Made by a program: the position numbers and the translations under genes. A stretch of DNA of 64,000 nucleotides from Escherichia coli O157:H7 (GTDB taxonomy: Bacteria; Pseudomonadota; Gammaproteobacteria; Enterobacterales; Enterobacteriaceae). Positions 1 to 20,985 of this stretch are shown piece by piece; the first letter of the stretch is position 1, and each line of letters opens with the position of its first letter. The notes under the pieces are model-generated. The model was given only the letters and a program-made list of their open reading frames with translations, did no database searches and was not told the origin of the DNA. The stretch lies in the NCBI RefSeq assembly GCF_013167455.1, contig NZ_CP038328.1; one strand, 5' to 3'.

Positions 1-126
1 CATAATCTGGTATTCCGAAGGAATGCGATCGTCTTCCACCAGATCTCCGGTATAAATACTTTCTCTTATCCACTCCACCACTTGTTGATAGAGCGGTATT
101 TGTGACGACTTACTTAATGATTTCAT
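1..126 (-). CDS. GntR-family HTH transcriptional regulator, N-terminal 42 codons only (gene runs off the window start)
   Basis: Reverse complement of 1..126 begins with ATG (124..126) and translates MKSLSKSSQIPLYQQVVEWIRESIYTGDLVEDDRIPSEYQIM, a typical GntR-type winged-helix N-terminus. Absent from the ORF track because no stop lies inside the window. Confidence 0.4.
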   Translation of the reverse strand, partial: MKSLSKSSQIPLYQQVVEWIRESIYTGDLVEDDRIPSEYQIM

Positions 127-324: not shown

Positions 325-3128
<2,804 letters not shown>

Positions 3129-3132
<4 letters not shown>

Positions 3133-4073
3133 GCGTGCGCTCCTTCATGACGACGAATGCGTGGGTCCAGTGCGGCGTTGAGCAAATCGACAATCAAATT
3201 ACAGACCACAAAAACCACCACCATCATCAGCGTAAAGCACTGGATCACCGGATAGTCACGGTTAAAAATCGCCGACACCGCATAGCGCCCGACGCCGGGC
3301 CAGGTAAAGATGTTTTCGATAATCATCGTCCCGCCAATCAGTTCGCCAATGTGCATCCCCACGGCGGTGATCATCGGCAGCGAGGCATTGCGCAGAATAT
3401 GACGACGCTCGGTCTGTTTGTCATTCAGGCCGCGTAGCCGCGCCCAGGTGACGTGACGCTGACCGGCGACGTCCAGCATACTGGCGCGCAGCAGCCGTGC
3501 GTTAATCGCCAGCGACATAAAGGCAATGGAAACCGCAGGCAAAATGATGTGCTGCCAGCCGCCGTAGCCCATCGCGGGTAGCCATTGCAGATACACCGAA
3601 AACGCCATCACCAGTAAAAATGCCAGCCAGAAGTTGGGCATCGACACGCCGAGAAACGCGATGAAACGTACGGCGAAATCCGGCAGACGGTCACGATGGC
3701 GCGCCGCCCAGATACCGAGCGGTACGGAAGTGAGCAGAATTAATACCAGCGCCGCACCCGCCAGTTCCAGCGTGGCGGGCAGGAAGTTCAGCATATCGTC
3801 CAGCACCGGGCGCTGCGTGGCAAATGAGATGCCGAAATCAAGATGCAGCGCCTTCCACAACCAGGTGCCGTACTGCACATACAGCGGCTGATCCAGTCCC
3901 AGCATGGTGCGGGTAGAGGCCAGCATCTCCGGCGTCGGCGGCAGGTTAGACAGACGCAAATAATCGAGCGCCGGGTCGCCGGTACCGAGGCGCAGCATCA
4001 GAAAAATGATCACCGAGGCGGCGAGCACCATCGGGATCAGCAGCAGAAAGCGGCGTAATACGTAACGCAACAT
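3129..4073 (-). CDS. nikB: Nickel ABC transporter permease NikB
   Basis: 314-aa DppB/OppB-type permease; tightly packed in the operon. Confidence 0.93.
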
Positions 4074-5647
4074 TAAGGTTTCACCGGTTTAATCTGTTCG
4101 AACGGAATTTCGGTGGCGATCGGCGCGTAGGGGATGTTACCCAGCTCCGGTTTTGATACCACCATCATTGAGATGTAACTGATAGGCAGATAAACCGCCT
4201 CGTCATGCAGACGGGTCAGAATGTCGCGATACAGTGCCTGACGTTGTGCTTCGTCATGGGTCGCCAGCACTTCGCCGATCTCTTTATCAATCAGCGGCTT
4301 GTCGGCTAATCCTTGCTGTGCCTGGAAGTCAGCGTGCGACGGTACGCGCATTGAACTCAGGAAGGCGTGTGGATCGTATGGCGCGCCCCAGGTGCGGTGG
4401 AAAATCATGCCAAAACGACCGTCGCGCTGACGCGCATAGATACTGCTCTCTTCTTCGCCAATCAGCGAGACATCTGCGCCAATCTGGCGCATATCAGCCT
4501 GAATGATTTCCGCCATCGATTTGCTTAACGCATCGGTGCCGATGAACGAAAGTTCAATGTGCAGCGGCTGACCATTTTTCTCGCGGATGTCTTTGCCCGC
4601 AGGCAGCGTCCAACCGGCTTTTTCCAGCAACGCTTTCGCTTTCTGCGGATCGTACTGGCGCGGTTTCAGGCCGAGGTTGGCGTAGGGCACAGAAGGGGCA
4701 AACAGGGTGTCGGCGACCTGCTGGGTGCCATACAACGCGTTATCAATCAGCGATTTTTTGTTTACCGCGTAATTAAGAGCTTCACGTACTGCCAGCTCAT
4801 TGGTGGGGGCTTTGGCGGTATTAAGCGCCAGCATCACGGTTTCGATCGGCTGTGACAGTTGGGTATGGTAAGCCGGGTTCTGGCTAAAGCGGGCGAAGGT
4901 ATCGAGCGGTAATAACCCTTCGTTTCCGTACAGCAGGTCGATATCGCCAGTTTCAAACGCCACCGCGCGGGTAGTCGGGTCTGGGATGACGTTAAAAGTG
5001 ATCTTCTTAATTGCCGGCTTTTCGCCCCAGTAGTTTTCGTTACGGACGAAGACATCGTACTGATTCAGTTTCGATTCCTGCAAAACCCACGGTCCGGTGC
5101 CAATCGGCGCTTTAATCCCGTTCATGGTTTCATGGTTTTTAAACTGCGAGGGGGCGATAAAGCGGAAAGGGCGCGGCAGGGCCAGTTCTTGCAGGAAAGG
5201 ATAGTAGGCGCTTTTCAGGGTGATTTGCAGCTCTGTTTTACTGAGTGCTTTAACATCAACAATCTGGTTTGCCAGCTCCAGCCAGGCGTGACGTTGACGG
5301 TTATCGAGCACTGCGCGGAAGTTTTCTGCCGCCGCCTCTGCATCAAACGGTTCGCCGTTAGAGAATTTCACGTCATCACGCAGGGTGAAGGTCCAGATTT
5401 TACCATCTTCTGAATGAGTCCAGCTTTTTGCCAGCCACGGGATCACCGAACCGTCTGCCTGATATTTCACCAATGGTTCATAAACCATGCTCTGGGCGAA
5501 CATCTGGTTAGGCGTGTAAAGGTGCGGGTTTAGTGGCCCGACATTCACCGGCCAGGCGGTGGTGATTTCATCTGGTGCAGCGGCATGGACGATAAAAGAC
5601 GCACAAGCCAGCAGCGCAAATAGAGTGCGGCGGAGTGTGGAGAGCAT
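4073..5647 (-). CDS. nikA: Periplasmic nickel-binding protein NikA
   Basis: 524 aa with N-terminal signal peptide; family-5 solute-binding protein; first gene of the nik operon. Confidence 0.93.
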
Positions 5648-5685
5648 GGTAACCCCAATGGATTAAAATAGATGGCGGAAATAAG

Positions 5686-5713
5686 TATGACGATTTTAAG
5701 TATTCGTCATACT
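5686..5713 (-). promoter_or_regulatory. NikR operator in the nikA promoter (GTATGA-N16-TCATAC)
   Basis: Perfect dyad GTATGA(5686..5691)-16 nt-TCATAC(5708..5713), about 40 bp upstream of the nikA start; matches the established NikR operator architecture. Confidence 0.8.
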
Positions 5714-5757
5714 GATTACCTGTTCTGGATCAATAGATGGGCAGTCGGGTGGGCGGA

Positions 5758-6345
5758 TCAGTTAACTGAATCGATCCATTGCACACTGTCGGCGGTGAGC
5801 GTAAAGGGAGTAGGGGTGCAGATCGCCAGGCTTAAATTTTCTAGCTGACAATGGCTGACTGACAGCGAGGAGTGATAGGTGCTGTCTACGCTGACGATTT
5901 GCCAGGCGCTGCCACCACGCTGTTTAACGATGGCTTCTTTGCGCGTCCAGATGCGCCAGAACATTTCCAGTTGCTGATCAGGATGCACGGCGTCCATCTC
6001 AGCATGTTCCCCGAGGCTGAACACGGCGTTCGCCAGCCAGCGCCAGTTGGCGCGCGGGCGAATCACTTCGATATCGCAGCCGACTTCGCCTTCATCACTC
6101 AACAGCAGGGCGATATCGTCACCGCTATGGCTTAAGTTGAACCATAGCGGCGTTTCCGGCGCAAATGCAGGTTTGCCTTGTTCGCCATAGATGATCTCCG
6201 GTAGCGGGGAAAGCGTGTGCGAAAGCAATGCACGCCCCGCCAGCCAGCGTTCGCGTCGTGGACCTTGCGGTGCTTGCTCGCGTAAACCCGGTGGCAGTGG
6301 AGCTGCGCTTAAGGTCGAAACTTTCCCCAGAACTATCCGATACAT
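5758..6345 (-). CDS. acpT: 4'-phosphopantetheinyl transferase AcpT (195 aa)
   Basis: Translation from the internal ATG at 6345 (MYRIVLGKV...) gives 195 aa matching AcpT. The longer ORF-track start at 6465 would overlap the upstream KS gene and is rejected. Confidence 0.88.
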   Translation of the reverse strand: MYRIVLGKVSTLSAAPLPPGLREQAPQGPRRERWLAGRALLSHTLSPLPEIIYGEQGKPAFAPETPLWFNLSHSGDDIALLLSDEGEVGCDIEVIRPRANWRWLANAVFSLGEHAEMDAVHPDQQLEMFWRIWTRKEAIVKQRGGSAWQIVSVDSTYHSSLSVSHCQLENLSLAICTPTPFTLTADSVQWIDSVN

Positions 6346-6346: not shown

Positions 6347-7576
6347 TCAGGGCCAACGTTTAATGATGATGGATGTATTAATGCCGCCAAAGGCAAAGTT
6401 GTTACTCTGCAAAAACTCACAATCAACCTTGCGGGCTTCATGCATGATGTAATCCAGCGCGCCACAATTCGGGTCTGGTTTATTCAGGTTTAGCGTAGGC
6501 GCAAACCAACCTTCGCGCATCATTTGCAGACTCATCCAGGCTTCGAGCGCGCCACAGGCACCAAGCGTATGACCAAAATAACTTTTCAGCGAGGAGAGCG
6601 GCACATTATCACCGTAAATGGTTGCTGTCGCCAGACTTTCTGCCATATCACCGCGATCGGTCGCCGTACCATGCGCTGAAATATAGCCGATATCTTGTGC
6701 GCTTAACCCGGCGATTTTCAGCGATTGCTCCATACAATACTGCATGGTTTCGCGCTGCGGCTGGGTAATATGTGCCGCGTCGCAGTTAGTCGCAAAGCCG
6801 ACGATTTCACCGTAAATGGTCGCGCCGCGCGCTTTGGCGTGCTCCAGTTCTTCGAGAATGAGCGTACCTGCGCCTTCACCAATCACCAGCCCGTCGCGGT
6901 TTTCATCGAACGGTGAAGGTGTGGTTTTCGGCGCATCATTGTGCTGGCTGGTGGCGAAAAGCGTATCAAATACCGCTGCTTCTGAAGGACATAACTCTTC
7001 GGCACCACCAGCAACCATCACCGTTTGATAACCGTGGCGAATGGCTTCCCACGCATAACCGATTGCCTGGCTGCCGGAAGTACAGGCGCTGGAGGTTGGG
7101 ATCACCCGCCCGCGCAGGCCGAAAAAGAGGCCAGTATTAACGGCGGTGGTGTGCGGCATCATCTGCACATAGGTGGTGCCAGTGATGTTATTGGTGTGCT
7201 TTTCCGTCAGCATGGTGGCGAACTCGCTTACCGGGCCGGTACTGCCGGTCGATGAACCGTACGCAATGCCCGTTTCGCCGCTGGTTAATATCGGATCGCC
7301 AATCAACCCTGCCTGCTCTAACGCCAGCTCGCTGGCACGGGTCGACATTTGCGACACGCGGCCCATCGCACGGATACGCTTGCGGGTGTAGTGCTCCGGT
7401 AGCGTGAAATCATCAACAGGCGCGCCAAGCAGGGTGTGCAGCCCATCGTAGACCTGCCACTCCGGCATTTTGCGCACCGCATTTTCATATGCCAGTAAGC
7501 GTGCAGAAACGTCCTGCCAGTTTTCACCAAAGGCAGTCACGCCGCCCATTCCTGTAATCACTACGCGACGTGTCAT
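6347..7576 (-). CDS. apeR: Beta-ketoacyl-ACP synthase (FabB/FabF-like elongating KS) of the APE-type cluster
   Basis: 409 aa; active-site SSACTSG Cys plus ISAHGTAT and FGHTLGA His motifs. Ape letter assigned from position in a colinear 17-gene cluster, tentative. Confidence 0.8.
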   Translation of the reverse strand: MTRRVVITGMGGVTAFGENWQDVSARLLAYENAVRKMPEWQVYDGLHTLLGAPVDDFTLPEHYTRKRIRAMGRVSQMSTRASELALEQAGLIGDPILTSGETGIAYGSSTGSTGPVSEFATMLTEKHTNNITGTTYVQMMPHTTAVNTGLFFGLRGRVIPTSSACTSGSQAIGYAWEAIRHGYQTVMVAGGAEELCPSEAAVFDTLFATSQHNDAPKTTPSPFDENRDGLVIGEGAGTLILEELEHAKARGATIYGEIVGFATNCDAAHITQPQRETMQYCMEQSLKIAGLSAQDIGYISAHGTATDRGDMAESLATATIYGDNVPLSSLKSYFGHTLGACGALEAWMSLQMMREGWFAPTLNLNKPDPNCGALDYIMHEARKVDCEFLQSNNFAFGGINTSIIIKRWP

Positions 7577-8304
7577 AACATCCCTCCGTTGATGGAAATA
7601 ACCTGGCGGGTGACGTAACCCGCAATATCAGACATTAAATAGCTGGCAAGCCCGGCAACTTCTTCCGCCTGGCCCATGCGTTTCATGGGGATCATCGACA
7701 TTGCCTCTTTCAGGGCGCTCTCTTCCATTTCGATCATCCCGGTATCAATAAGCCCCGGCGCGATGCAGTTGACGGTGATTTTGCGCTTCGCGAGTTCGAT
7801 AGCCAGCGCTTTTGTTGCGCCGATAATTCCGGCTTTGGCAGCGCTGTAATTCACCTGGCCGCGATTGCCCATTACGCCGGAAACCGAGGATAGCGTGATG
7901 ATGCGCCCACCCTGGCGTGCGCCGATCATCGGCATAATGCACGGCTGAATGACGTTGTAGAAACTGTCGAGGTTGGTGTGGATCACCGCATCCCAGTCGT
8001 CATCGCTTAAAGCCGGAAAAGCGGCATCGCGGGCGATCCCGGCGTTACTGACCACGCCGTACCAGGCACCGTGTTGCGCGATTTCGTGCTCCAGCACTTC
8101 CCGACACTGTTCGCGGTTTGCGACGTCGAAACTGAGCAAACGCCCGTTACCCCCATTGGCGACAATGGCATTCAGCGTTTCCTGAGCGCCTGTGGCGTCA
8201 CGGTGATAGTGAACGCCAATGTTAAAGCCGTCTGCCGCCAGTTGGCAGGCGATGGCGCGACCAATGCCTTTGCTGGCACCAGTAACCAGAACTGAACGAC
8301 TCAT
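7573..8304 (-). CDS. apeQ: 3-oxoacyl-ACP reductase (FabG-like SDR ketoreductase)
   Basis: 243 aa; N-terminal TGASKGIG Rossmann motif and SDR catalytic YSAAK; 4-bp overlap with the downstream KS. Confidence 0.8.
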   Translation of the reverse strand: MSRSVLVTGASKGIGRAIACQLAADGFNIGVHYHRDATGAQETLNAIVANGGNGRLLSFDVANREQCREVLEHEIAQHGAWYGVVSNAGIARDAAFPALSDDDWDAVIHTNLDSFYNVIQPCIMPMIGARQGGRIITLSSVSGVMGNRGQVNYSAAKAGIIGATKALAIELAKRKITVNCIAPGLIDTGMIEMEESALKEAMSMIPMKRMGQAEEVAGLASYLMSDIAGYVTRQVISINGGML

Positions 8305-8768
8305 CAGGACGCTCCTTGTTGAAACAGGGTGGTAAGTTCTTCCGCGGTCGGCTGGAAGGTGTTAATGCGGCCCGTCGCCTCGCCGTCGTTGATGCTGCAC
8401 TCAAAACTGCCGAAGCGATCGTCTTGCATCAGCAGTTTGACGGTAATGGTCAGTGTCTGGCCTGCGGGCAGAATGCCAGTGGTGCAAAGCAATTCACGCG
8501 CGCCCAGTATCATCCCTAACTCAATACTGTTTTTGCCCTGCTGGTGGCGATGCCAGCCAGACCAGACGCCGACGGTTTGCGCCATCAGTTCAAGGGTAAA
8601 CCAGCCGGGGAGATTGCCGTCCGGGTCGAGAAACGGTGCCAGTACGCCACTGGGCGAAACCGTCACGCGGCACACCGCGCTGTCATCGCTGACGCTCACC
8701 ACGTCTTCCAGCAGTAACATGGGCGCGTCGTGGGGCAGATAAGCGCCGGGGGATAAATAGTGGCTCAC
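8304..8768 (-). CDS. apeP: Hotdog-fold 3-hydroxyacyl-ACP dehydratase (FabA/FabZ-like)
   Basis: 154-aa hotdog-sized ORF inside the PKS-like cluster; overlaps neighbours by 1 to 4 bp. Confidence 0.7.
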   Translation of the reverse strand: MSHYLSPGAYLPHDAPMLLLEDVVSVSDDSAVCRVTVSPSGVLAPFLDPDGNLPGWFTLELMAQTVGVWSGWHRHQQGKNSIELGMILGARELLCTTGILPAGQTLTITVKLLMQDDRFGSFECSINDGEATGRINTFQPTAEELTTLFQQGAS

Positions 8769-9943
8769 GAAACCCTCCCGAGCAGAATGCTGGCGTTATT
8801 GCCGCCAAAGGCGAAGGAATTGGACAGGATCACCGGACGTGCCAGCGGCTGCGGTTTTTCGATAATGCCACACGGTGGCAGCGTGGGATCGCGCGGCGAC
8901 AGGCTGAAGTCCTGAGCGGGCAGCGGTAAATCACGCTGTAAAATCAACATACTAATTGCCGCCTCGGTAATGCCCGCTGTGCCCAGCGTGTGTCCGGTCA
9001 AATGTTTGGTGGAGCTGCACGGTACGCGTTCGCCAAACAGGGCGTTAACCACCATTGATTCAATCTGATCGTTGAGTTGTGTGGCGGTGCCGTGCAGGTT
9101 GATATAGCCGACGTCATCTGGCGTAAGCTGCGCATCGGTCAGCGCCTGATTAATAGCGCGGATCGCTCCTTCGCCCTGCGGATGCGGGGCTGAAATATGG
9201 TAAGCGTCGCTCGATTCACCAACGCCCAGCAACGCGATGGGCTGCGGTTCCCGGGTCAGCAGCATTAGCCCCGCCCCTTCACCAATGGTGATACCTGCGC
9301 GGTCACGACCAAACGGCTGACATAAGGTTGGCGACAGCGATTCGAGGCTGTGAAAACCGTTAATCGGCATCCGGCTCAGGGTGTCTGCGCCACCCACAAT
9401 GGCGGCATCGACCAGCCCCGCTTCGATAAGCCTGCGCCCGCTGATTATCGCTCTGGCGCTGGAAGAGCAGGCGGTTGAAAGGGTATAGGCCGGGCCGTCG
9501 AGCGCCAGCCAGTGGCTGAGAAAACGCGACGGATCGCCGAGTTCCTGTTGCGCGTAGTGCCATGTGGTGCTCGGCTGCCCGTGGGTGCGCAGGTTAACGT
9601 GCGTGTCGCCTTCATGCAGGCCGGAGGTGCTGGTACCAAGCACAATCGCAATGCGCTCGCGGCCATATTTCGCAATGGCGTCATCAACCTGCGGCTGGAT
9701 CTGCGCCAGCGCCGCCAGCAGGATCTGATTGTTGCGCGAGCGGTGCGCAGCGAATTTTTCCGGGATAAGCGGAAGCTCGCCATCCACGCCAGCCAGGACC
9801 GCCTGCGGATGCCCCTGCAACCAGCCTGCGCGCGGGCGCATGCCGGGAGCAACACCGCGAGTCAGGTTGGTTGCGATTTCGTCAAGGTTATTTCCCAGGG
9901 CGTTGATCATGCCGACGGCGGAAATATAAATCATATCAGTCAC
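8765..9943 (-). CDS. apeO: Beta-ketoacyl synthase (KS partner of the chain-length-factor-like protein)
   Basis: 392 aa; active-site TACSSS Cys with HGTAT and GHTLG His motifs. Confidence 0.8.
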   Translation of the reverse strand: MTDMIYISAVGMINALGNNLDEIATNLTRGVAPGMRPRAGWLQGHPQAVLAGVDGELPLIPEKFAAHRSRNNQILLAALAQIQPQVDDAIAKYGRERIAIVLGTSTSGLHEGDTHVNLRTHGQPSTTWHYAQQELGDPSRFLSHWLALDGPAYTLSTACSSSARAIISGRRLIEAGLVDAAIVGGADTLSRMPINGFHSLESLSPTLCQPFGRDRAGITIGEGAGLMLLTREPQPIALLGVGESSDAYHISAPHPQGEGAIRAINQALTDAQLTPDDVGYINLHGTATQLNDQIESMVVNALFGERVPCSSTKHLTGHTLGTAGITEAAISMLILQRDLPLPAQDFSLSPRDPTLPPCGIIEKPQPLARPVILSNSFAFGGNNASILLGRVS

Positions 9944-10520
9944 CTAAGTATTGAATGGTGATGTGGTATTTAAAGACATGCTGCTCAATGCTGATTGGCA
10001 CGCGTTTGCCCTTGCGATTCAGATAGGTGATTTCCGTGACCAGTTTGCCGCTGGCGTTACGCAGCTCGCGTTTGTCACCGTTGTCGCGAAGTGTCCATCC
10101 TGCGGGAAGTTGCGGTTGCCAGGCGCTAATCGGCCAGTGGCTGAGCATCACGTCAGCCAGTACCTGACTTGCGGGCGGTAACTGTGGGACGACGATGGAT
10201 TGCTCGGCGCGTAGCCCTTGCGCATCGTAGGTCACCAGAAACAGGCGAATGCCGACCGACGACAGCCCGGCAAGGGTGATTTTCTGATCGTCGGCGTTAA
10301 GCATCACTAACAGCGACTGGGTTTTGCCGTTGAAGCTGCCGGTCAACAGTTGCTGCGAATTGACTGCGGGTGAAATCCCTGGTGCCGGCAGCGTGATGCG
10401 CGTGCCAGGTTGCAGCCACGCCTGCGGGCGGCCTTCCTGTTCTGGTTGCGAGTGGCTACAGCCGGTGAGGATAAGCGTAGCGGTCAGGGCGAACGCTCGC
10501 CAGAATGTGGATTTGATCAT
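9936..10520 (-). CDS. apeN: Lipoprotein of the APE export module (DUF3261-like)
   Basis: 194 aa; signal peptide with lipobox LTGC; sits between the MMPL exporter and a KS. Confidence 0.65.
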   Translation of the reverse strand: MIKSTFWRAFALTATLILTGCSHSQPEQEGRPQAWLQPGTRITLPAPGISPAVNSQQLLTGSFNGKTQSLLVMLNADDQKITLAGLSSVGIRLFLVTYDAQGLRAEQSIVVPQLPPASQVLADVMLSHWPISAWQPQLPAGWTLRDNGDKRELRNASGKLVTEITYLNRKGKRVPISIEQHVFKYHITIQYLGD

Positions 10521-12835
10521 TTTTTTGTTCTCTTTTTATCGGGCATAGCCAGCGGCGAAAGCAGGAAGGCGGTGAAAATACCGCTCACCAGCACAATGCC
10601 AAAACTGCTGATGGCCTGGGTGGCGCTGAATACCAGCATACCCAGCGTCAGCAAGGTGGTGAGCATTGCCAGCGCGATCGCCAGTAGCGAAGTTAACGGT
10701 GTACCGCGCGGATTACTGAAAAACAGCGTGTAGTTGATACCGATGCCAAGCACCAGCACCAGCGCCAGCAGCGAAAAGAGATTCACCGCCTGCCCGCTCA
10801 TCGCCAGCACCGCCAGACCACAGCCCAGCGAAAGCACCGAAGGCACCAGGCTGATAAGCCCTTTGCGCCAGCCGAGACGGGCCACTGCGCCGCAGGCAAT
10901 CACTGCCAGCGCCACCAGCAACAAGCCGGTTAAGACGTAGCGGTAAAGTGCGAACAATTCATCAAAGGTGCTTTTGCGATCAACCCAGGCAATGCCGCAA
11001 GGGTAATATGTGGCGATTTCCTGCATCAACGCGCTACTTTTAACCCCTTCAACCGGCACCAGTACGCCGCTTTCGCCGTTTTCCAGCGTCAGCCACAGCA
11101 GACGCCAGCCTTCACTGGCGGGGCTTGCCAGCCATTCATCAACGTTCACTGGCATGGCGTTGAGATCCGGGTTCACTGCCGTCAGCCCGGCATTTTGCAG
11201 CGCTTTTGTTACTGTCGGGGCCGCCGTTTTCAGCAGTTGTAAATCTTCCTCCTGCCGCGCAAGGGAGTTCAGCGGAATGGTGCGGTAGTTGCTGATAAGC
11301 CCCTCTTTTTTCGCATACTCAAGTGAGGCGGTATATTTCTCCAGTCGCCGCAATGTTTGCTGTGGCGAATCGCCGTAAACCACAAACCATTTTTGATCGA
11401 CGCTCTGCCCGGTCAGGGCGGTAATGGCTTTTTCCTGCGCCAGAATATGCTGCGGTAGCGCCTGTAACTGCGAGATATCGTCATCGACGCGTAGCATTGA
11501 CATCCCCGCCAGCGAAAACAGCGCCAGCGCGACGGGCAGACCCAGCGACAGTTTTTTATTACGCCGCCACGCTGCCAGCCAGCGTAGCATCAGCGCCATC
11601 GCCGGAACCGGACGCACCGGCAGGCCACGGCACAGCCACGGATGCCAGAACAGGACGGTCAGACAGGAGGCGCTCAACCCGACGGCGGCAAAAATCGCCA
11701 TCTGGCGAATGCCGGGGAAGGGGGCGAGCATCATAATCAGATACGCCGCCACGGTGGTGAGCAGCGCCAGTAGCAAGGCATTGCGTACTTTCGCCAGGCT
11801 TTGCCACGGCGAAACGTCGTTGCCGTGAACCATCCGCTCGGTGAGATAATAGAGCGTGTAGTCAGCGGAAATGCCGATAACGCTCATGCTCATCACCAGC
11901 GTCATCAGGTGTAATTCACCGAAAATCAATAAAGTGGCGACCGTTCCCGCCAGCGCGCCGATGCCGATGGAAATCACGCAAAGCAGCAACGGGCGTAAAG
12001 AGCGGAACACCGCCACAATCAGCAATATCACCCCCAGCAGCGTAGCCACGCCCAGGGTGGAGATATCCTGCTTCGCCTGTTGGCTGGCGTAATCGCTGTA
12101 AAACACCGTGCCGCGCGAGAGCAACTGTGCCTGCGGGTAACGCGTTTTCAGATCCTTTTCCAGCGTATTCAGGGTCGTGATCAGCTGGTGGGTTTGCTGC
12201 ATATCAAACGACGATCCCGCCAGTTCGCCGTGCAGCAGATACCAGTAGTTGCCCTGGGGATCCTGCGTCACCAGCCAACCGTCCATCAGCCGCAAACGCT
12301 GGCCGTTTTTCGCCATTGCCAGCTGCGAGCCGCGCATTAACATCAGCGGATCGTTTTGCAGCTCCTTGCCGCTTACGCCGGAGAATGCGGAATAAAGCTG
12401 GGAGAGGATCCACTGTGCCTGCGCTTCGCCGCCGTTTTGCAGGCGGGCGCGGGTGTTGGGGTCAATCAGGCCGTTGCGATGCTGCCAGAAAAACGCTCCC
12501 CACGCCTGCTGGCTGGCGGCATCCATTGGCCCTTTAACGTCGCCGAGCGCAGCGGATTTTTGCAGCAGCGTCAGCCACTCCTGAGCGACCAAAGGATTAG
12601 CCTCTTTACCGGGGCTGACCAGCCACACCAGTTGGCGGTCAAGACGCTGCATAAAGCCGTCATTCAGCGCCGGAGGAATATCGCCCATCGTCTGTTTGGG
12701 TAACATAGCCAGCACGCTACTGTTCAGCCGTGATTGCGGCAGCAGGATCAGCAACGCCACCGCCATGACCAGGCAGACTAGCCCCCATAACAGCGCGGGG
12801 CGTTTACTGGGCGGCAAAACGTTGGCGTTCGTCAT
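10517..12835 (-). CDS. apeM: MMPL/RND-family membrane exporter
   Basis: 772-aa polytopic protein with two hydrophobic bundles separated by a large soluble loop, the typical MMPL layout. Confidence 0.75.
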   Translation of the reverse strand: MTNANVLPPSKRPALLWGLVCLVMAVALLILLPQSRLNSSVLAMLPKQTMGDIPPALNDGFMQRLDRQLVWLVSPGKEANPLVAQEWLTLLQKSAALGDVKGPMDAASQQAWGAFFWQHRNGLIDPNTRARLQNGGEAQAQWILSQLYSAFSGVSGKELQNDPLMLMRGSQLAMAKNGQRLRLMDGWLVTQDPQGNYWYLLHGELAGSSFDMQQTHQLITTLNTLEKDLKTRYPQAQLLSRGTVFYSDYASQQAKQDISTLGVATLLGVILLIVAVFRSLRPLLLCVISIGIGALAGTVATLLIFGELHLMTLVMSMSVIGISADYTLYYLTERMVHGNDVSPWQSLAKVRNALLLALLTTVAAYLIMMLAPFPGIRQMAIFAAVGLSASCLTVLFWHPWLCRGLPVRPVPAMALMLRWLAAWRRNKKLSLGLPVALALFSLAGMSMLRVDDDISQLQALPQHILAQEKAITALTGQSVDQKWFVVYGDSPQQTLRRLEKYTASLEYAKKEGLISNYRTIPLNSLARQEEDLQLLKTAAPTVTKALQNAGLTAVNPDLNAMPVNVDEWLASPASEGWRLLWLTLENGESGVLVPVEGVKSSALMQEIATYYPCGIAWVDRKSTFDELFALYRYVLTGLLLVALAVIACGAVARLGWRKGLISLVPSVLSLGCGLAVLAMSGQAVNLFSLLALVLVLGIGINYTLFFSNPRGTPLTSLLAIALAMLTTLLTLGMLVFSATQAISSFGIVLVSGIFTAFLLSPLAMPDKKRTKK

Positions 12836-13409
12836 CGGTCAGTTGCGCTGGCGTCAGTTGATGTTGGGTAAGAGCAATATCGGTGCGATCGCCCTGTTTA
12901 TCATTAAGTTGAATGCTCTCCAGATAGGTTTTCCCGGCGAGATCGATGGTGTTGAAAATTTTATCCAGCGGCGTGGTGGTCGGCGTCAGGCGCAGCGTCC
13001 AGCGGCCTTCGCCTTTGTCAGCAAATTCGACGCGGAAGTTTTGTTCCAGCACTTTGCGATCGGCCTGGAACAACGCGCGCAGCAGGTGGTTAAACTGGAA
13101 CATCTGCGGGTTGTTTTCTGCCGTGATGATTTGCGGCGGCTGACCGTTGATCACCTGCACCATGCGTTTATCGTCCAGTAATAGTTGCATGGGGAACGGT
13201 GAGGTTTGATCCCACAACAGCCCCTGGTCGCGGGCGATCAACATCTGGCCCTGAGATCGCAGCGGCTGCGGCAGATCTTTAATCGTCCGGGTTTGATCGA
13301 AATGGGCGCGGATCACCGGTTGTTCGGTAAAGCGTTGCTGAAGATCGTCCAGGGTCAGGGCGCTCACAAACGGGCTAATCAGCAGCGCCAGCAGCGGTAA
13401 AAATTTCAT
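12804..13409 (-). CDS. apeL: LolA-like outer-membrane lipoprotein carrier protein
   Basis: 201 aa with signal peptide; size and position match the LolA-like component of APE clusters. Confidence 0.65.
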   Translation of the reverse strand: MKFLPLLALLISPFVSALTLDDLQQRFTEQPVIRAHFDQTRTIKDLPQPLRSQGQMLIARDQGLLWDQTSPFPMQLLLDDKRMVQVINGQPPQIITAENNPQMFQFNHLLRALFQADRKVLEQNFRVEFADKGEGRWTLRLTPTTTPLDKIFNTIDLAGKTYLESIQLNDKQGDRTDIALTQHQLTPAQLTDDERQRFAAQ

Positions 13410-13828
13410 GGTTTGACTCCCATGCGTTCAAACAGAATATCGGGGCTGACAAAGCACAGTTCGCGACTTTGCTCGTCGACCGCGACCTGAATGGTGTATC
13501 CGGTGGTGGCGCGTTTGCCCGTTTCGGCATCGAAAATCTGATAGCCAATCCGCAGACGGTTTTCGAACTCTTCGATATGCGCACGCACGCGGATGCGTTG
13601 CTCAAAGGTGAGGGCGTGGCGATATTTCACCCGCGCATCGACCACTGGCCACAAATAACCGGACTCTTTCATTTGCCGATAGCCGTAATTGAACTGGTTG
13701 AGCAGCGCCTCGCGAGCCACTTCAAAGTAGCGAAAATAGTTACCGTGCCAGGCCACGCCCATCATATCGACGTCGTGAAAGGGAATGGTCAGCTCGACTT
13801 CTGCGGTAAATCGGGGATCGTTCAGCAC
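13406..13828 (-). CDS. apeK: Hotdog-fold acyl-CoA/acyl-ACP thioesterase (4HBT-like)
   Basis: 140-aa small thioesterase-sized ORF, translationally coupled (ATGA overlap) to the next gene. Confidence 0.65.
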   Translation of the reverse strand: MLNDPRFTAEVELTIPFHDVDMMGVAWHGNYFRYFEVAREALLNQFNYGYRQMKESGYLWPVVDARVKYRHALTFEQRIRVRAHIEEFENRLRIGYQIFDAETGKRATTGYTIQVAVDEQSRELCFVSPDILFERMGVKP

Positions 13829-13831
13829 CCT

Positions 13832-15508
13832 TTACTCCTTGTCCTGAATTTCCGGCAGTTGCCAGAAATCGAAAAAATTAAACCAGTCGAGAGGCGACTG
13901 GAGCGCGTAATGTTCCAGACGCGCGGCGTAATGATCGATAGCGTTTTGCAGCGCCTGTTGGCGTTCGCCGCGCGGCAGCTGCAGTGGGTCGGCAAAGCTT
14001 TCGCAGTGAATATGCAGCTTGCCGTGCTGGCGCAGGGCGAAAATCAGATTCACCGGGCAGCGCAAAATAGAGGCGAGAATAAACGGCCCCTGTGGGAAAG
14101 GCGCAGGCTGGCCCATAAACGAACTCCAGCAGACGCGCCAGTCGCCGCCGCGTTGCGGGTTGACGGCGATGCGGTCACCGACAATCGCCACCCATTCGCC
14201 GTTATCCAGCTTCTCTTTCAGCAGGATGGCGGTTTCTGGGCCGATATCTGTTACCGGCATCAGGTTAATGCCTGCCTGAGGAGCCATCTCCTGCATTATC
14301 TGTTTAAAGCGTTGGGCGTTTTCGCTAAACACCAGCGCGTTAATGGTTTTGTAGCCCTGAATTTTTGCCAGCGCCCGGCACACTTCCACATCGCCAAGAT
14401 GCGAGGCCAGCAGCAATTTGCCGCGCGGATCGCGGACGTCAAGCGCTGCTTCTGCGCCTGGCGCAAACAGCACATCACGCCCTGGTTGTAGCTCGCCGCG
14501 CCAGCTGGCGATTTTGTCGAGCATGGCATTACCGAAACGTAGAAAGTGCTGATAGCTGTTGAGTTTTGCCGCCTGTGGTTGATGCTGTCGTACACGGGCG
14601 AGCCAGTCTTGCGACGCTTTGCGCGCACGAGAAGCAGTGAGCCAGTAGACGCCCACCACCGGGTAAAGCAGCGCGCTAAACGCCGTTCTTCCCAGCAGAC
14701 GCCAGACCAGCAGCATCAGGCGCATTCCCCATAATCCTTTCACTTCACTCTGCCGCGCCCAGTGGCAGGAAGAGCGGCGCATCAGCAGTGAAGGAATACG
14801 CGGCAACATGCCGAAAAACAGACGCGTGTGCATGAGCGAGATGCGGACGTTATCTTTCAGGGCATCAAAATGCGAAAGCCCGTCCAGTGGATAGGTGACG
14901 CGGGTCGGCACGAAATAGCTGGTATTTCCCTGCCAGTAGAGGCGCACCATCACTTCGGTGTCGAAATCCATCCGCTTGCCGATGGTGGCGTGTTTTGCCA
15001 GTTGCAGCGTTGGCGCAACCGGATAAACGCGAAAACCGCACATGCTGTCTTTCAGTTGCAGGGAGAGCGTTTCGATCCATACCCAGACGTGGGTGACCCA
15101 GCGCCCGTAAAGCCGTGAGCGGGGGATGGAGTCATCGTAAATTGGCTGGCCGGAGATCAGTGCCGCAGGTTGTTGTTCAGCGAGAGCCAGCAGTTTAGGG
15201 ATATCTTCAATCGCGTGCTGACCGTCAGCATCCACCTGCACCGCATGGCTGAACCCTGCGTCTGCCGCTGCCTGTAAGCCACGCATCACCGCCGCGCCTT
15301 TGCCTGCGTTTTCTGCCAGGCGAATTAAGGTCACGCCAGGCTGTTCGGCAAGCAGACTGTCCAGTTGCTGTTGTGTGGTGGCATCGCTGCCGTCATCCAC
15401 CACAATACAGGGCAGATTAAATGGCTTAAGACGCGCCAGCACGCCCGGCATCATCGCGCCGTGGTTGTAGCAGGGTATCAACACGCAGGGAGAAAAGTTT
15501 ACCGACAT
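13832..15508 (-). CDS. apeJ: Bifunctional family-2 glycosyltransferase / acyltransferase
   Basis: 558 aa; N-terminal GT2 motif VVDDGSD, followed by a membrane segment and a C-terminal acyltransferase-like domain. Confidence 0.7.
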   Translation of the reverse strand: MSVNFSPCVLIPCYNHGAMMPGVLARLKPFNLPCIVVDDGSDATTQQQLDSLLAEQPGVTLIRLAENAGKGAAVMRGLQAAADAGFSHAVQVDADGQHAIEDIPKLLALAEQQPAALISGQPIYDDSIPRSRLYGRWVTHVWVWIETLSLQLKDSMCGFRVYPVAPTLQLAKHATIGKRMDFDTEVMVRLYWQGNTSYFVPTRVTYPLDGLSHFDALKDNVRISLMHTRLFFGMLPRIPSLLMRRSSCHWARQSEVKGLWGMRLMLLVWRLLGRTAFSALLYPVVGVYWLTASRARKASQDWLARVRQHQPQAAKLNSYQHFLRFGNAMLDKIASWRGELQPGRDVLFAPGAEAALDVRDPRGKLLLASHLGDVEVCRALAKIQGYKTINALVFSENAQRFKQIMQEMAPQAGINLMPVTDIGPETAILLKEKLDNGEWVAIVGDRIAVNPQRGGDWRVCWSSFMGQPAPFPQGPFILASILRCPVNLIFALRQHGKLHIHCESFADPLQLPRGERQQALQNAIDHYAARLEHYALQSPLDWFNFFDFWQLPEIQDKE

Positions 15509-15852
15509 AGGCGGATCTTCCCGCTACTGGCGGTGTGGCGGGCGTCACCGTCGTGACGCTGATAGCTAAAGCTCAGAATCTGGCGTTCTTCCTGCCAGTT
15601 AAGCGCGAGCGTGACGCGGTTTTCCGGCAGCAACGGAGACTGGAATTTTATGTTCTGAATGGAGTGAAAACGCCAGCCAGGCGCGAGCAGATTGAGCGCG
15701 TAGCTCATCGCCCAGTCGATTTGCGCAACTCCTGGGAGTAATGGTTGCACGGCAAAATGACCGCGAAACCAGAACAGATCCGCCCTGAGATGCAGAACAA
15801 TTTCAAGGTGATTCGTTTGTGCCTGATGGCGCTCGATTTCATGGGGCTTCAT
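15499..15852 (-). CDS. apeI: Hotdog-fold dehydratase (second DH subunit)
   Basis: Start set at the ATG at 15852, which has an AGGAG ribosome-binding site 9 nt upstream, giving 117 aa. The ORF track extends it to 15882. Confidence 0.65.
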   Translation of the reverse strand: MKPHEIERHQAQTNHLEIVLHLRADLFWFRGHFAVQPLLPGVAQIDWAMSYALNLLAPGWRFHSIQNIKFQSPLLPENRVTLALNWQEERQILSFSYQRHDGDARHTASSGKIRLCR

Positions 15853-17200
15853 GAAATAACTCCTGTAATTGCGCATAGACACGCTTGTTCATACTGTTTA
15901 CTGGCATTTCATCAATAACGCGCCAGTAACGCGGAATAGCAACTGGCTCCAGCGTCGGGCGCAGTAAACGCCGCCAGGTCATTTCCTGGCTATGCCCGCC
16001 GCCGTTCTGCCATTGCAGATGAGCTTCGTCATCCAGCACCAGCAAAACGCCTATGCTCTGACGCCCGCCGCGCGTAACGGGAACTGCCGCCGCCTCGCGA
16101 ATGCCGTCCAGCGCCAGTAGACGTTGTTCTACTTCCTGGAGTGAAATACGTTTTTCTTCAATCTTAACGATGCGCCCACGACGCCCCATCAGATGGAACT
16201 GACCATCTTCGCTAAACTGTAAGATATCGTCGAGTAACATGCCGTTATCTTCCGCTATCAGCGGTGAAAAGAGGCGAAAGGCATCGCCTTCGGCCTGGAA
16301 CTGCATACCTGGGAGGGGTAGCCAGCGGCGTTGCTCTTGTTCGCGGTAGCGCCAGGCGATGACGCCAGTTTCCGTGCTGCCGTAGATTTCATCAGGCCAG
16401 ACGCGCAGCCAGCTCGCGGTATGTTGTACATCCTGCCACGGCAGCTCACCGCCAGCAGAGAGAAGCACCTGAACGGGTGGCGGAGAAAGCTGGGTATCCA
16501 GGCGCTTCAAAAATGCCGGGCTGCTGATGAAGATATAGCGATGCTGATGACTCAACGCGGCAAACTGTTCGACATACCAGAGCATGGCGGCGTGCAGCGG
16601 TAATCCCAACGCCATGGGCAGGAAAACGCGAAAAGTCAGGCCGTACAAATGCTGCGGCAATACGGAACCGACGACACGACAACCCGCCAGACGTGCGCCT
16701 AATCGTTCAGCCAGCAGTTCTGCTTCACGATCCAGCAAATGAACAGGTTTAATCGCCCGTTTCGGCTGTCCCGTGGAACCGGAGGTAAACAGCTCGATAA
16801 AAGCCTCTGGCGCTATAGCGGCAAAGGTGAAGGATTGTGTCGCGATTTGTGGAGAACTTGCTACCAACAGCAATGAACCTTGCCAGTTAAGTTCGCTGTC
16901 GCTAAGCACACCATCAAAAAGTTCACGTTGCTCGTTAAGCTGGATAACACGGTTATGCCCCGGAAGCACCGGCGTTTTTCCGGCGTGTAGCGTGGCGAGC
17001 AGGGCAACGATAAACAGATAGCTGTTCTCAAAGCACAGCGCCCAGCGTTCACCCGGCTGTTGCTGCAAGCGGCAGATAAGTTGCGCGACATCGTGACGCA
17101 AATCGCCCAGCGTCCAGGTACTTTCGTTCAGCCACGCAATGGGTGTGTCATCAGGGCGTGGCGCAGTCAGCCAGCGTGCAAGCGGTAAGGTCTGCTTCAT
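15839..17200 (-). CDS. apeH: AMP-dependent synthetase/ligase (adenylating starter-unit ligase, acyl-ACP synthetase-like)
   Basis: AMP-binding motif TSGSTGQPK; start placed at the ATG at 17200, which forms an ATGA overlap with the upstream gene's stop, giving 453 aa. Confidence 0.8.
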   Translation of the reverse strand: MKQTLPLARWLTAPRPDDTPIAWLNESTWTLGDLRHDVAQLICRLQQQPGERWALCFENSYLFIVALLATLHAGKTPVLPGHNRVIQLNEQRELFDGVLSDSELNWQGSLLLVASSPQIATQSFTFAAIAPEAFIELFTSGSTGQPKRAIKPVHLLDREAELLAERLGARLAGCRVVGSVLPQHLYGLTFRVFLPMALGLPLHAAMLWYVEQFAALSHQHRYIFISSPAFLKRLDTQLSPPPVQVLLSAGGELPWQDVQHTASWLRVWPDEIYGSTETGVIAWRYREQEQRRWLPLPGMQFQAEGDAFRLFSPLIAEDNGMLLDDILQFSEDGQFHLMGRRGRIVKIEEKRISLQEVEQRLLALDGIREAAAVPVTRGGRQSIGVLLVLDDEAHLQWQNGGGHSQEMTWRRLLRPTLEPVAIPRYWRVIDEMPVNSMNKRVYAQLQELFHEAP

Positions 17201-17778
17201 GCGCGATCTCTTTTCATCACCTGACGGCGCAGCAGCCATTCACCAGCCATTAACGTCCCCATCAACAAATAAGCAATCATGCCGTTCCAGGCGGTCCATA
17301 ACGACATATCGGCATAAAGCGCGGTAAAGAGGGCAATTCCACCGTTAATGATGAAAAAGCCGCACCAGATTTGCGTGACGTGGCGGGTATAGCGCACGCC
17401 CTTTTCCGGGAGGTCTGGCTCCTGCAACCGCGCCAGCCGCTCAACTATCGGCATTGCCGACCACAGCGAACCGCCAAAAACCGCCAGCATGACCGCGTTA
17501 ACCACTACCGGGTAAAACAGCAGTAGCTGGTGCGTTTTCAACATAAAGCTGGCGACACATAATGCGATGCCCACGACAGCGACGAGTTGCGTGACGGCTT
17601 GTAAAGGCCCCGCCTGGCGACGGGTCTGGCGCAGACGCAACAAAAGCAGCAACGCCATTAGCGGTAACAGCCAGTGCAGGCCGTTATGCGCTAAGCCAAA
17701 CCAAATCACAAACGGCCAGGCGAGCAGCAATAATCCAGTCAGCAGCTTAATCATCGGTAGCGAGCGAATGCCCGACAT
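17197..17778 (-). CDS. apeG: Integral membrane protein of the APE cluster
   Basis: 193 aa with about 5 predicted transmembrane helices. Confidence 0.6.
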   Translation of the reverse strand: MSGIRSLPMIKLLTGLLLLAWPFVIWFGLAHNGLHWLLPLMALLLLLRLRQTRRQAGPLQAVTQLVAVVGIALCVASFMLKTHQLLLFYPVVVNAVMLAVFGGSLWSAMPIVERLARLQEPDLPEKGVRYTRHVTQIWCGFFIINGGIALFTALYADMSLWTAWNGMIAYLLMGTLMAGEWLLRRQVMKRDRA

Positions 17779-17782
17779 CAGA

Positions 17783-18034
17783 TCAGGCTTCTTGTAGCAG
17801 GCGTTCTACAGCCTCGACGACATCCTGGACTGTACGCACTGCTTTAAACTCTTCCGGCTTGATTTTCTTACCGGTTTTCTTTTGCAGGTGCACAATCATG
17901 TCAACGGCGTCGATGCTGTCCAGTTCCAGATCTTCGTACAGGCGCGTTTCAGGTTTGATGTCCTGCGGATCGATTTCAAACAGCTTAACCAGCAGGGCTG
18001 AGACTTCCTGATAGACGGTTTGTTGTTCTGTCAT
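17783..18034 (-). CDS. apeF: Acyl carrier protein
   Basis: 83 aa; phosphopantetheine attachment motif LELDSIDAVDM; GAGGAA ribosome-binding site upstream. Confidence 0.85.
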   Translation of the reverse strand: MTEQQTVYQEVSALLVKLFEIDPQDIKPETRLYEDLELDSIDAVDMIVHLQKKTGKKIKPEEFKAVRTVQDVVEAVERLLQEA

Positions 18035-18045
18035 GATGGCTTTCC

Positions 18046-18303
18046 TCAGGCACGTTGCGCAGCAATGAAAGAGGCCAGAGTGGCGACGGAGAAAAAGTGC
18101 TGACGCATCTCTTCGCTTTCCGCAGAGAGCACGATGCCGTACTCATTTTTTACTGCCAGTCCCAGTTCCAGGGCATCGATAGAGTCCAGCCCTAAACCGT
18201 CGCCAAACAGCGGCGCGTCGGTATCGATATCATCAGGCGTCAACTCGTCCAGATTGAGGGTGCTGATGATGAGGTTTTTAATTTCCAGATAAAGCGCTTG
18301 CAT
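18046..18303 (-). CDS. apeE: Acyl carrier protein
   Basis: 85 aa; motif LGLDSIDALEL; AGGA ribosome-binding site upstream. Confidence 0.85.
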   Translation of the reverse strand: MQALYLEIKNLIISTLNLDELTPDDIDTDAPLFGDGLGLDSIDALELGLAVKNEYGIVLSAESEEMRQHFFSVATLASFIAAQRA

Positions 18304-19099
18304 TATTTATTCCTGAGAGAGGTAAACAACCTTGTTGTAATTGAAGCAAAAGATGCCGGTTTAACTGCCTTGCTGCCAGCGCCGGTTCTTGTGAAGTTGC
18401 ATCGTAAAATTTATTGATTTCAACCCGACCATGGACTGCAACCGTAAAAAACGGCCGGTCAGGTGGAACGTCATACCATTTACTTTGTTTATCCAGCAGA
18501 TGCTCGCTACAGCCGATTGTCACGATGCGTAAATCGCTGGCGCAGCGCACGGCAATATTCGCCGCCCCGCGCTGCAGCGTCATTTTTTCACCGGGCTTCG
18601 TTCGTGTGCCTTCGGGGAAAATCAGGATAGTGTCACCCTGTGCCAGTCGCTGTTGGCAGCGGGGTAACAGAGTTTCAGCTTCGCTGTTGATTAAATAATC
18701 TGTCGCCCGCACGACGCCGCCAAGAAAAGGATTTTTTAACAGCGCGCTTTTCACCAGGCAGTCAGTTTCTGGCATGACTGACGCCAGCAGCACGTAATCG
18801 ATCAGCGTGGGATGATTGGCTACGACGAGGCAACCGCGTTCCTGATGTAAGATTTCAGCGCCATCAATACGATAATCCAGTACGCCAAGCCCTTTCGCGA
18901 CAGTTAAAAACAGGCGAAAACTGGCGGCAATGCTGCGACGCGCCAAACGACGGCGGCGGGAAGTATCCCACACCAAAACTAACAATATGTTAAACCACAC
19001 GACAGAAAGCAGCAGGCCGCCGAGACCAAACAGGGCAAAACATAACCCGGTCATGACCAGTCGCCAGGTCCACTCCAGACGTGACATCAGCTTACTCAT
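18278..19099 (-). CDS. apeD: Lysophospholipid (PlsC-type) acyltransferase
   Basis: N-terminal membrane anchor and acyltransferase-sized body; start placed at the ATG at 19099 (ATGA coupling with the upstream stop), giving 273 aa. Confidence 0.7.
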   Translation of the reverse strand: MSKLMSRLEWTWRLVMTGLCFALFGLGGLLLSVVWFNILLVLVWDTSRRRRLARRSIAASFRLFLTVAKGLGVLDYRIDGAEILHQERGCLVVANHPTLIDYVLLASVMPETDCLVKSALLKNPFLGGVVRATDYLINSEAETLLPRCQQRLAQGDTILIFPEGTRTKPGEKMTLQRGAANIAVRCASDLRIVTIGCSEHLLDKQSKWYDVPPDRPFFTVAVHGRVEINKFYDATSQEPALAARQLNRHLLLQLQQGCLPLSGINNASALSGN

Positions 19100-19818
19100 C
19101 TGTGGCTCCAGCGCCATTGCACGCGCTCGCCAGGCAGTGAAAATGTGTCTACATTTTGTAAATAGTGCTGTAAAAACAACATGCTTTGCGGCAGTGTTGT
19201 TTCATTGCCCGCAATGGCTGACTGCGTTTCACATTGCCAGTCATCGCCAGCTTCAATCACCAGCGCGACGGCGTACGGCCAGGTCGGCATTTCTGATGGC
19301 AGTTGTGGGTGATAAAACTCGGGCAGGAAACCGTCAAAATCGACCATCAGCACGCGCTGGTATCCCGCTTGTAGCAGGCTAAGCACTTCACACAAACCTT
19401 GCTGGAAACTATCGCGACCAGCCGAAAGCGATGACGAAACGCTCGGCTGTTTGGCCGCAATGGTCAGGTTACCCACGGAAGAGTTGTGTACGGAGAGCGC
19501 GAAGTCCGTCGGAGAAAGCGCCTGTTCGGTTGCCAGTGCATGAACAATGCGGTAATTGCGCTCCAGTTCGCCATGACGACTGGTATACAAAACGGCGTCT
19601 GGTTGATGGCGGCGTAGCATTGCCAGACCGCATTCAACAGCCAGTTTGCTCCCGGAGCTGAGGCGGCGGGCGGTCATCATTGGCAGTTCACTTAATTTTG
19701 CCAACGGTGCTGTCGGGTCAATTGCCTGAGGCTGACGTGACCACTCCTGCCATTGCAGCGTTTCACTAAGTCCAGGCGCTCTTGCCTGCCAGTCGAGAAT
19801 GTTTAATGCAAATTTCAT
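19096..19818 (-). CDS. apeC: KS-like protein lacking the active-site Cys (chain-length-factor-like KS partner)
   Basis: Ketosynthase-like by cluster context, but no Cys/His/His triad is visible. Start ambiguous: ATG at 19818 (240 aa) or TTG at 19842 (248 aa). Confidence 0.6.
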   Translation of the reverse strand: MKFALNILDWQARAPGLSETLQWQEWSRQPQAIDPTAPLAKLSELPMMTARRLSSGSKLAVECGLAMLRRHQPDAVLYTSRHGELERNYRIVHALATEQALSPTDFALSVHNSSVGNLTIAAKQPSVSSSLSAGRDSFQQGLCEVLSLLQAGYQRVLMVDFDGFLPEFYHPQLPSEMPTWPYAVALVIEAGDDWQCETQSAIAGNETTLPQSMLFLQHYLQNVDTFSLPGERVQWRWSHR

Positions 19819-19858
19819 CAACGCGCGCCCGCGGTAAACCAAAATTATTAAGTGACGA

Positions 19859-20926
19859 TTATTTCTTTTGGCATATCAAAAGTGTATGCCCAACGCCTAA
19901 ATTATCGTGGCGCTCTGCTACCTGGAATCCTGCTTTATTCAGATAGTCGTAAAATTTCTCTGCACTATAGAAACGGCTGTTACCGTTTGCCATGCAGGTA
20001 AAATAAAGTGAGGACGCGTTCAGGCTAAACGATGCTGCTTCAAACCGCTGCGCATCCCAGAACAACTCCATGATGCAAACTTTTGCGCCAGGCTTCATTA
20101 CGCTGGCAATTTTGCTGAGTATGCTAATTATTTGTTCGGGTGAAAAACAGTCTAAAAATTGGCTCATCCACCAGATATCAGCCTCGCCCGGTAATGGGGC
20201 ATCGCTTAGCATATCCACCGCATGGAAATCTATGCGATCAGAAAAACCTGCATTCGCGATATTTTCTTTCGCTAGTACGATTTGTTGTGGCAGATCTAAT
20301 AACGTAACGGCGATGTTTTCATTGTATTTGCAGCAACGCAAAGCCCACTTACCCGTATTGCCGCCTACATCGTACAATGTTGTGGGGTTGTTGGCGAATA
20401 CATAAGGCAGTGCGGCGTTAAATGCGCCATCTGAATAGTAATGATCAAACGCAAACCAGCTTTCACGAGCGGCGTCTGGTAATTGCGAAAGTGCCGGATA
20501 TATCGTCGACCAGTCGCCAAATACTTTTAACCCGGAAGGTTTTCCTTCATTGAGTGAATCGGCGAGGAAGAAGAGCCCCTGGTAACAGACATCCTGGGTG
20601 AAATCCATATTCACGCGAGTCATAGTGTCATGCAGGAGGTAATGACCGATTTTCGCCAGGTAATAAATTCCCTCTTTACAGGTAATAATTCGCCCGCTTA
20701 AGCCCATATCTAACAGAACGCTGGTAGCATATTCGTTGATATGGCTATGTTCGGTGATATCAGCCAGCGTTGCGCCATGTTTGCCTTGCCGATCCAGATA
20801 TGAAAGTACACCCGCATTACGTAGGCAGAGTGCTGTTTGAAAAAGCATAGGGGCAAAGGCAATGCGTTGAGCTTCGGTAATCGCATCCAGTGCGCTAAGA
20901 GAATCCTGTTCGTACATGTTGGGCAC
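19859..20926 (-). CDS. apeB: Class I SAM-dependent O-methyltransferase
   Basis: 355 aa; SAM-binding motif LYDVGGNTG; first gene of the 17-gene block. Confidence 0.8.
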   Translation of the reverse strand: MPNMYEQDSLSALDAITEAQRIAFAPMLFQTALCLRNAGVLSYLDRQGKHGATLADITEHSHINEYATSVLLDMGLSGRIITCKEGIYYLAKIGHYLLHDTMTRVNMDFTQDVCYQGLFFLADSLNEGKPSGLKVFGDWSTIYPALSQLPDAARESWFAFDHYYSDGAFNAALPYVFANNPTTLYDVGGNTGKWALRCCKYNENIAVTLLDLPQQIVLAKENIANAGFSDRIDFHAVDMLSDAPLPGEADIWWMSQFLDCFSPEQIISILSKIASVMKPGAKVCIMELFWDAQRFEAASFSLNASSLYFTCMANGNSRFYSAEKFYDYLNKAGFQVAERHDNLGVGHTLLICQKK

Positions 20927-20985
20927 AACCTGTTAAGAGGGAATTAAATTATTATCGGACCGCAACGGCCCGACTTTAGGAAGAA

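Follow-up and report, generated by a model that had tools for sequence, protein, structure and literature searches.

The closest described relative of the locus analyzed here is the nikABCDE promoter of Escherichia coli K-12. We take this promoter and its NikR operator to be the system of Chivers and Sauer (2000, 2002), and PDB 2HZV to be the NikR-operator crystal structure of Schreiter et al. (2006). The NikR footprint and the nikA start are said to have been mapped in the work of Chivers and Sauer (2000), de Pina (1999), Rowe (2005) and Schreiter (2006). The sequence GTATGA-N16-TCATAC in the nikABCDE promoter is the palindromic operator of Ni(II)-NikR and is bound with nanomolar affinity, with the antiparallel beta-strands of the ribbon-helix-helix domains of the NikR tetramer filling the major groove at each half-site (PMC7055735; PMC4486848). 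More generally, NikR signals are inverted repeats of 27 to 28 bp, which take the form GTATGAT-N13/14-ATCATAC in enterobacteria and GTGTTAC-N13/14-GTAACAC in delta-proteobacteria (Rodionov et al. 2004, PMC545781). The K-12 nikABCDE promoter also has an FNR ChIP-seq peak with one site at -40.5 and is directly activated by FNR (Myers et al. 2013, PMC3688515, Table 1). All three ChIP-seq peak callers, and ChIP-chip as well, detected that peak, with a PatSer ln(p) of -9.55 (PMC3688515, Table S5).

The window, i.e., the whole 64,000-nucleotide stretch of E. coli O157:H7 DNA that was analyzed, carries the same system. Over a 151-bp stretch across the acpT-nikA gap, it matches E. coli K-12 MG1655 at every base (100% identity), which means that experimental data from K-12 apply directly. 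The operator, the -10 hexamer, the FNR site, the leader and the operon order nikABCDE-nikR are all the same as in K-12; the regulatory region is without any difference, and only the neighborhood differs. The NikR encoded in the window is likewise 100% identical to K-12 NikR and is a full-length match to the crystallized protein (PDB 1q5v/2hza/2hzv/3od2), and nikR and nikABCDE are intact in cis with the operator. The element is the K-12 nikABCDE promoter in an O157:H7 background, which is already known and ordinary. The value of finding an intact, K-12-identical control region for nickel uptake in this O157:H7 window lies in correct annotation only. Typical O157:H7 strains match the window; 17B6-2, for instance, has 3 mismatches in 64,000 positions, and its RefSeq annotation gives the same gene coordinates. 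Strain TR01 is 100% identical over 701 bp and only ~98.3% identical over the whole window. The features of the region are listed here with their coordinates in the window.

325-726, minus strand: nikR; NF002815/TIGR02793 NikR equivalogs (NF002815 at 235 bits, cutoff 83)
732-1538, minus strand: nikE; NCBIfam equivalog above cutoff
1535-2299, minus strand: nikD; NCBIfam equivalog above cutoff
2299-3132, minus strand: nikC; NCBIfam equivalog above cutoff
3129-4073, minus strand: nikB; NCBIfam equivalog above cutoff
4073-5647, minus strand: nikA, first gene of the operon; TIGR02294 nickel_nikA (836 bits, cutoff 393)
5677-5720, no strand: extended imperfect palindrome around the operator, found by repeat search; 17-nt arms with 88% complementarity and a 10-nt center
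5685-5712, minus strand: NikR operator; half-site 1 GTATGA at 5712-5707 (about -26 to -21), N16, half-site 2 TCATAC at 5690-5685 (about -4 to +2)
5686, minus strand: predicted nikA start (A), from the FNR center at 5726.5 minus the published 40.5 (PMC3688515); gives a 39-nt leader
5698-5693, minus strand: -10 hexamer TAAAAT, read from the sequence; -12 to -7 relative to the predicted start, inside the operator spacer
5733-5720, minus strand: FNR site TTGATCCAGAACAG, matching TTGAT-N4-ATCAA at 8 of 10 positions; center at -40.5 from the predicted start, a class II position
5758-6345, minus strand: acpT, upstream of nikA, with its stop codon at 5758-5760; the intergenic region is 110 bp

A motif search of the 64-kb window returned a single exact GTATGA-N16-TCATAC, at 5685-5712, and the motif was absent from all 100 dinucleotide-preserving shuffles. 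Elsewhere in the window there were no near-matches with fewer than three mismatches, and matches with three mismatches occurred at chance level (18 found, 15.5 expected). The earlier note had reported this dyad at 5686-5713; the sequence it gave is exact and unique, but its coordinates were one base too high. Its reading of the dyad as the NikR operator in the nikA promoter is well founded, given a promoter identical to that of K-12, a published operator sequence and a cognate NikR identical to that of K-12. Full-text searches with the exact operator and FNR-site strings found no paper, and the strings are absent from the supplements of PMC3688515.

The operator lies 37 bp upstream of the nikA ATG (5647, minus strand), inside the 110-bp acpT-nikA gap. 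On the nikA sense (minus) strand the upstream part reads CCATCTA TTGATCCAGAACAG GTAATCA GTATGA, followed by the operator spacer, and from the operator to the start codon the sequence is GTATGA CGAATACT TAAAAT CG TCATAC TTATTTCCGCCATCTATTTTAATCCATTGGGGTTACC ATG. The symmetry is longer than the two hexamers: perfect 10-nt arms, AGTATGACGA-N10-TCGTCATACT, span 5684-5713, and the 17-nt arms of the imperfect palindrome occupy 5677-5693 and 5704-5720.

Such a palindrome might act mainly as an RNA hairpin, serving as an intrinsic terminator or stabilizer at the 3' end of the acpT transcript rather than as an operator. It lies 46 to 73 nt downstream of the acpT stop codon, is followed by UUAUUUCC, and as RNA has a folding energy of -15.6 kcal/mol (z = -4.9 compared with shuffles), with outer pairs added to a 10-bp stem. 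However, good RNA folding is a property of any perfect DNA palindrome, and here the hairpin loop has 10 nt and the U-tract is broken. A terminator consensus scan of 5560-5860 found nothing. The dyad also stands before nikA or nikR at loci without a detected AcpT homolog, for example in Superficieibacter, Pluralibacter, Bradyrhizobium and Halomonas, and what is conserved is the sequence of the half-sites, not covarying stem pairs. In addition, binding of NikR to the operator DNA is published (PMC7055735; PMC4486848), and a transcript from the predicted start at 5686 would be without the hairpin. We therefore consider it very improbable that the palindrome works mainly at the RNA level, though a minor, secondary terminator role for acpT is conceivable. 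The operator reading is the one we follow below.

What, then, activates the promoter? The earlier note had seen no convincing FNR site in 5714-5757, yet a consensus search with mismatches allowed finds an 8-of-10 match at 5720-5733, CTGTTCTGGATCAA on the plus strand. On the sense strand it reads TTGAT-CCAG-AACAG, with a perfect left half and a weak right half, AACAG, that agrees with the consensus at 3 of 5 positions. A strict search for TTGAT-N4-ATCAA missed the site because the AACAG half is imperfect. The site ends 7 nt upstream of the NikR box and is the only FNR-consensus match with two or fewer mismatches in the acpT-nikA intergenic region; the sole other intergenic match with up to three mismatches is centered at +20.5. 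Since the match is weak by sequence alone, we base its assignment on three independent lines, namely position, conservation and published ChIP data.

The center of the FNR site, 5726.5, lies 29 to 34 bp upstream of TAAAAT, and it would be at -40.5 if transcription began at 5686, the start that we infer. In class II promoters the FNR center is expected near -41.5 (±4). By chance, only ~0.002 sites with two or fewer mismatches are expected in the four allowed class II positions. To compare positions with published maps of K-12, we assume an offset of 1,977 bp between U00096.2 and U00096.3, based on record length and on the length changes all falling before 3.56 Mb. With this assumed offset, the center of the FNR site maps to 3,611,610.5 in K-12 U00096.2, which is 5.5 bp from the FNR ChIP-seq peak at K-12 3,611,605 (PMC3688515). 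In an expression-ratio table of that paper, nikA to nikE have values of 0.03 to 0.06, which would fit lost expression in an fnr mutant and the classing of the operon as FNR-activated (PMC3688515).

It could instead be argued that anaerobic induction of nikA does not run through 5720-5733, and that FNR acts indirectly or at another site. The match is only 8 of 10, and matches with two or fewer mismatches occur at chance density across the window (38 found, 28 expected). Table 1 of PMC3688515 also lists earlier in vitro FNR binding at nikA as 'None'. Yet within the intergenic region this match has no competitor of equal quality, it falls at a position where chance would rarely put one, and the published peak lies almost on top of it, with a single site reported at -40.5 (PMC3688515). 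Its cross-genus conservation, described below, adds to this, and we give an indirect or displaced action of FNR little credence. FNR activation through 5720-5733 is thus the reading that we adopt. Real FNR sites often match at 8 of 10 positions, one of the two half-sites being strong, and a search restricted to the strict consensus therefore overlooks some of them. Such imperfect sites can be recovered through their position relative to the -10 hexamer together with conservation across genera.

The published FNR position of -40.5 puts the nikA start at about 5686, and NikR would then cover -26 to +2. This geometry is self-consistent, as a start at 5686, 7 nt downstream of the TAAAAT hexamer, gives both a hexamer at exactly -12 to -7 and an FNR center at -40.5. 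With the same assumed 1,977-bp offset, 5686 corresponds to K-12 U00096.2 3,611,651, which is the position of an anaerobically induced sigma-70 ChIP-seq peak. The signal there rises 28-fold, from 68.7 aerobically to 1896.9 anaerobically (PMC3688515, Table S2). The start, and with it the distances from operator to start, should be read as predicted values. A sigma-70 consensus scan of 5560-5860 returned no promoter and no -35 hexamer, as expected for a class II activator-dependent promoter. The operator overlaps this core promoter, with TAAAAT in its spacer and the predicted start inside half-site 2. Cappable-seq cultures were reportedly aerobic. The available part of the Cappable-seq supplement (PMC4782308) has no entry for a nikA start at K-12 3,613,626-3,613,630, which we regard as uninformative.

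In several respects the promoter resembles other class II FNR promoters (such as dmsA, narG, pykA, ynfE and yfiD): the FNR center would be at -40.5 from the predicted start, there is no recognizable -35, and sigma-70 occupancy is higher without oxygen. With a PatSer score of -9.55, the site falls within the range of dmsA (-10.34), pyrD (-10.14) and pykA (-8.9). In contrast to these promoters, the second half-site at nikA is weak (AACAG, compared with ATCAA), and the core promoter is overlain by the operator of a metal-dependent repressor directly downstream.

We next consider how far this arrangement is conserved. Within E. coli, the 49-bp module of FNR site plus NikR operator is at least 99% identical in 5167 of 5425 E. 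coli genomes carrying the module. In the most divergent E. coli variants examined, which were sampled independently of the dyad, the NikR half-sites are invariant. Where these variants differ, the change is in the 7-nt linker, upstream of TTGAT, or at a single position of the spacer that does not touch the -10 hexamer. Beyond E. coli, the 14-base extended dyad was scanned against one genome per species (298 Gb), which returned 120 loci. In 26 of the 120, from other species, the dyad lies 10 to 132 bp upstream of nikR- or nikA-like genes, and only these 26 were used. Most of the remaining loci, which have no nikR or nikA neighbor, are probably fortuitous, since a pattern of 14 bases should recur by chance in 298 Gb.

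The nikA loci retrieved were from Escherichia albertii, Superficieibacter electus (NikA 85% identical) and Pluralibacter gergoviae (82%). Both NikR half-sites are invariant in these three nikA promoters, and because the loci were found via the dyad, they test its context and not the presence of the box. That context is well preserved. The sequence TTGATCCAG(A/G)(A/G)CAG stands exactly 7 nt upstream of GTATGA in E. coli, E. albertii, S. electus and P. gergoviae, while the flanks have diverged, and TAAAAT or TAGAAT occurs at the same position of the operator spacer in all three relatives. Conserved across genera are thus TTGAT, the key C in the other FNR half and the spacing, but not the flanks. 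FNR site, -10 hexamer and NikR operator are all conserved across these genera, together with their spacing.

Outside the Enterobacterales, to whose loci the search for a partner FNR site was confined, the dyad is found by nikR or nikA homologs in alpha- and gamma-proteobacteria, including Pseudomonas asuensis, Halomonas/Vreelandella, Devosia, Pannonibacter, Tardiphaga and many Bradyrhizobium. The E. coli operator is like other proteobacterial NikR boxes in being a 27- to 28-bp inverted repeat upstream of nickel-uptake genes or nikR, in agreement with PMC545781. It differs in arrangement: in many other genomes the box precedes nikR or a divergent pair of nikR and a nik-like transporter, whereas in E. 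coli it precedes nikA and nikR is the last gene. The same extended NikR dyad was seen in Citrobacter werkmanii (locus L011, 4603-4632) and Citrobacter sp. FP75 (locus L025, 3145-3174). It lies ~120 to 130 bp upstream of an ABC-transporter binding protein that is 24 to 26% identical to NikA and is accompanied by a NikB-like permease. Citrobacter may therefore have a second type of NikR-controlled transporter.

We are highly confident that the dyad serves as the operator through which Ni(II)-NikR acts on the FNR-dependent nikABCDE(-nikR) promoter and that the two sites form a compact 49-bp module. For NikR binding, FNR occupancy, FNR-dependent expression and the anaerobic increase in sigma-70 we draw on the literature on the identical K-12 sequence. 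The module would read, in order, FNR site at -40.5, 7-nt linker, half-site 1 at -26 to -21, a 16-bp spacer holding TAAAAT at -12 to -7, and half-site 2 at -4 to +2. When oxygen is absent, FNR at its class II position would recruit RNA polymerase with sigma-70 to this promoter, which lacks a -35. Once the cytoplasm holds enough nickel, the tetrameric NikR would set its two ribbon-helix-helix domains on the GTATGA half-sites, two helical turns apart. Ni-NikR lying over the -10 element and the start would then exclude or stall the polymerase, and we infer that repression works by steric occlusion. Because NikR would cover both the -10 hexamer and the start, repression should be dominant over FNR activation. 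The control region would in this way provide FNR activation for anaerobic [NiFe]-hydrogenase synthesis, overridden at the core promoter by Ni-NikR repression.

Could the promoter hold more than these two textbook sites? Three candidates can be named, the 17-nt arms, a 9-nt direct repeat and a NarL-type heptamer, and we think it unlikely that they add functional sites. The repeat, AATAGATGG (CCATCTATT on the sense strand), occurs at 5667-5675 and 5732-5740, on either side of the operator with a spacing of 65 bp. Its upstream copy overlaps the FNR half-site, and neither Superficieibacter nor Pluralibacter has conserved the downstream one; by chance, 151 bp should contain ~0.04 direct repeats of 9 nt. 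The heptamer TACTTAT (consensus TACYYMT) lies at 5687-5681 on the minus strand and overlaps half-site 2 and the predicted start. NarL heptamers occur in the window at chance frequency (22 found, 25 expected). None of the three candidates is above chance or conserved across genera, and we treat them as minor leads. The NikR footprint is enlarged at high nickel. Repression of nikABCDE by nitrate is reportedly NarLX-dependent, in work attributed to Rowe et al. (2005). The extended symmetry, the repeat and the heptamer could be the sequence basis of the enlarged NikR footprint and of NarLX nitrate repression.

The neighborhood is where the O157:H7 window departs from K-12. The window has a ~15-kb cluster separating yhhT from acpT and a GntR-family regulator after nikR, whereas in K-12 yhhT abuts acpT and rhsB follows nikR. 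The GntR-family regulator is at 1-126 (minus strand), downstream of nikR, and in strain TR01 genes of PTS galactitol type come next. The ~15-kb cluster (6347-21363, minus strand), which K-12 does not have, resembles aryl-polyene or fatty-acid-synthesis clusters. Its genes encode ketosynthases, a chain-length factor, FabG2, an ApeP-family dehydratase, two acyl carrier proteins, an acyl-CoA synthetase, an MMPL transporter, a LolA-like protein, a glycosyltransferase and a methyltransferase. Coverage of window positions 1-24000 reaches at least 80% in only 566 of 5425 E. coli genomes. The cluster would be in keeping with the O157:H7 island in which AcpT has the carrier proteins as its substrates.

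Further along the window, a type II toxin-antitoxin pair, ataR-ataT, with an acetyltransferase toxin, is annotated at 36267-37067 (plus strand) between livJ and panM. A RecQ-family helicase at 59081-62407 (plus strand), between gntU and yhgN, is annotated as a pseudogene (frameshifted, with an internal stop) and overlaps a DprA-like gene; it is annotated as intact in strain TR01. Two small accessory genes also lie among core genes, a tetratricopeptide-repeat gene at 42826-43572 (plus strand), between livF and ugpB, and a DUF4225 gene at 51913-52824 (minus strand), between ggt and yhhY.
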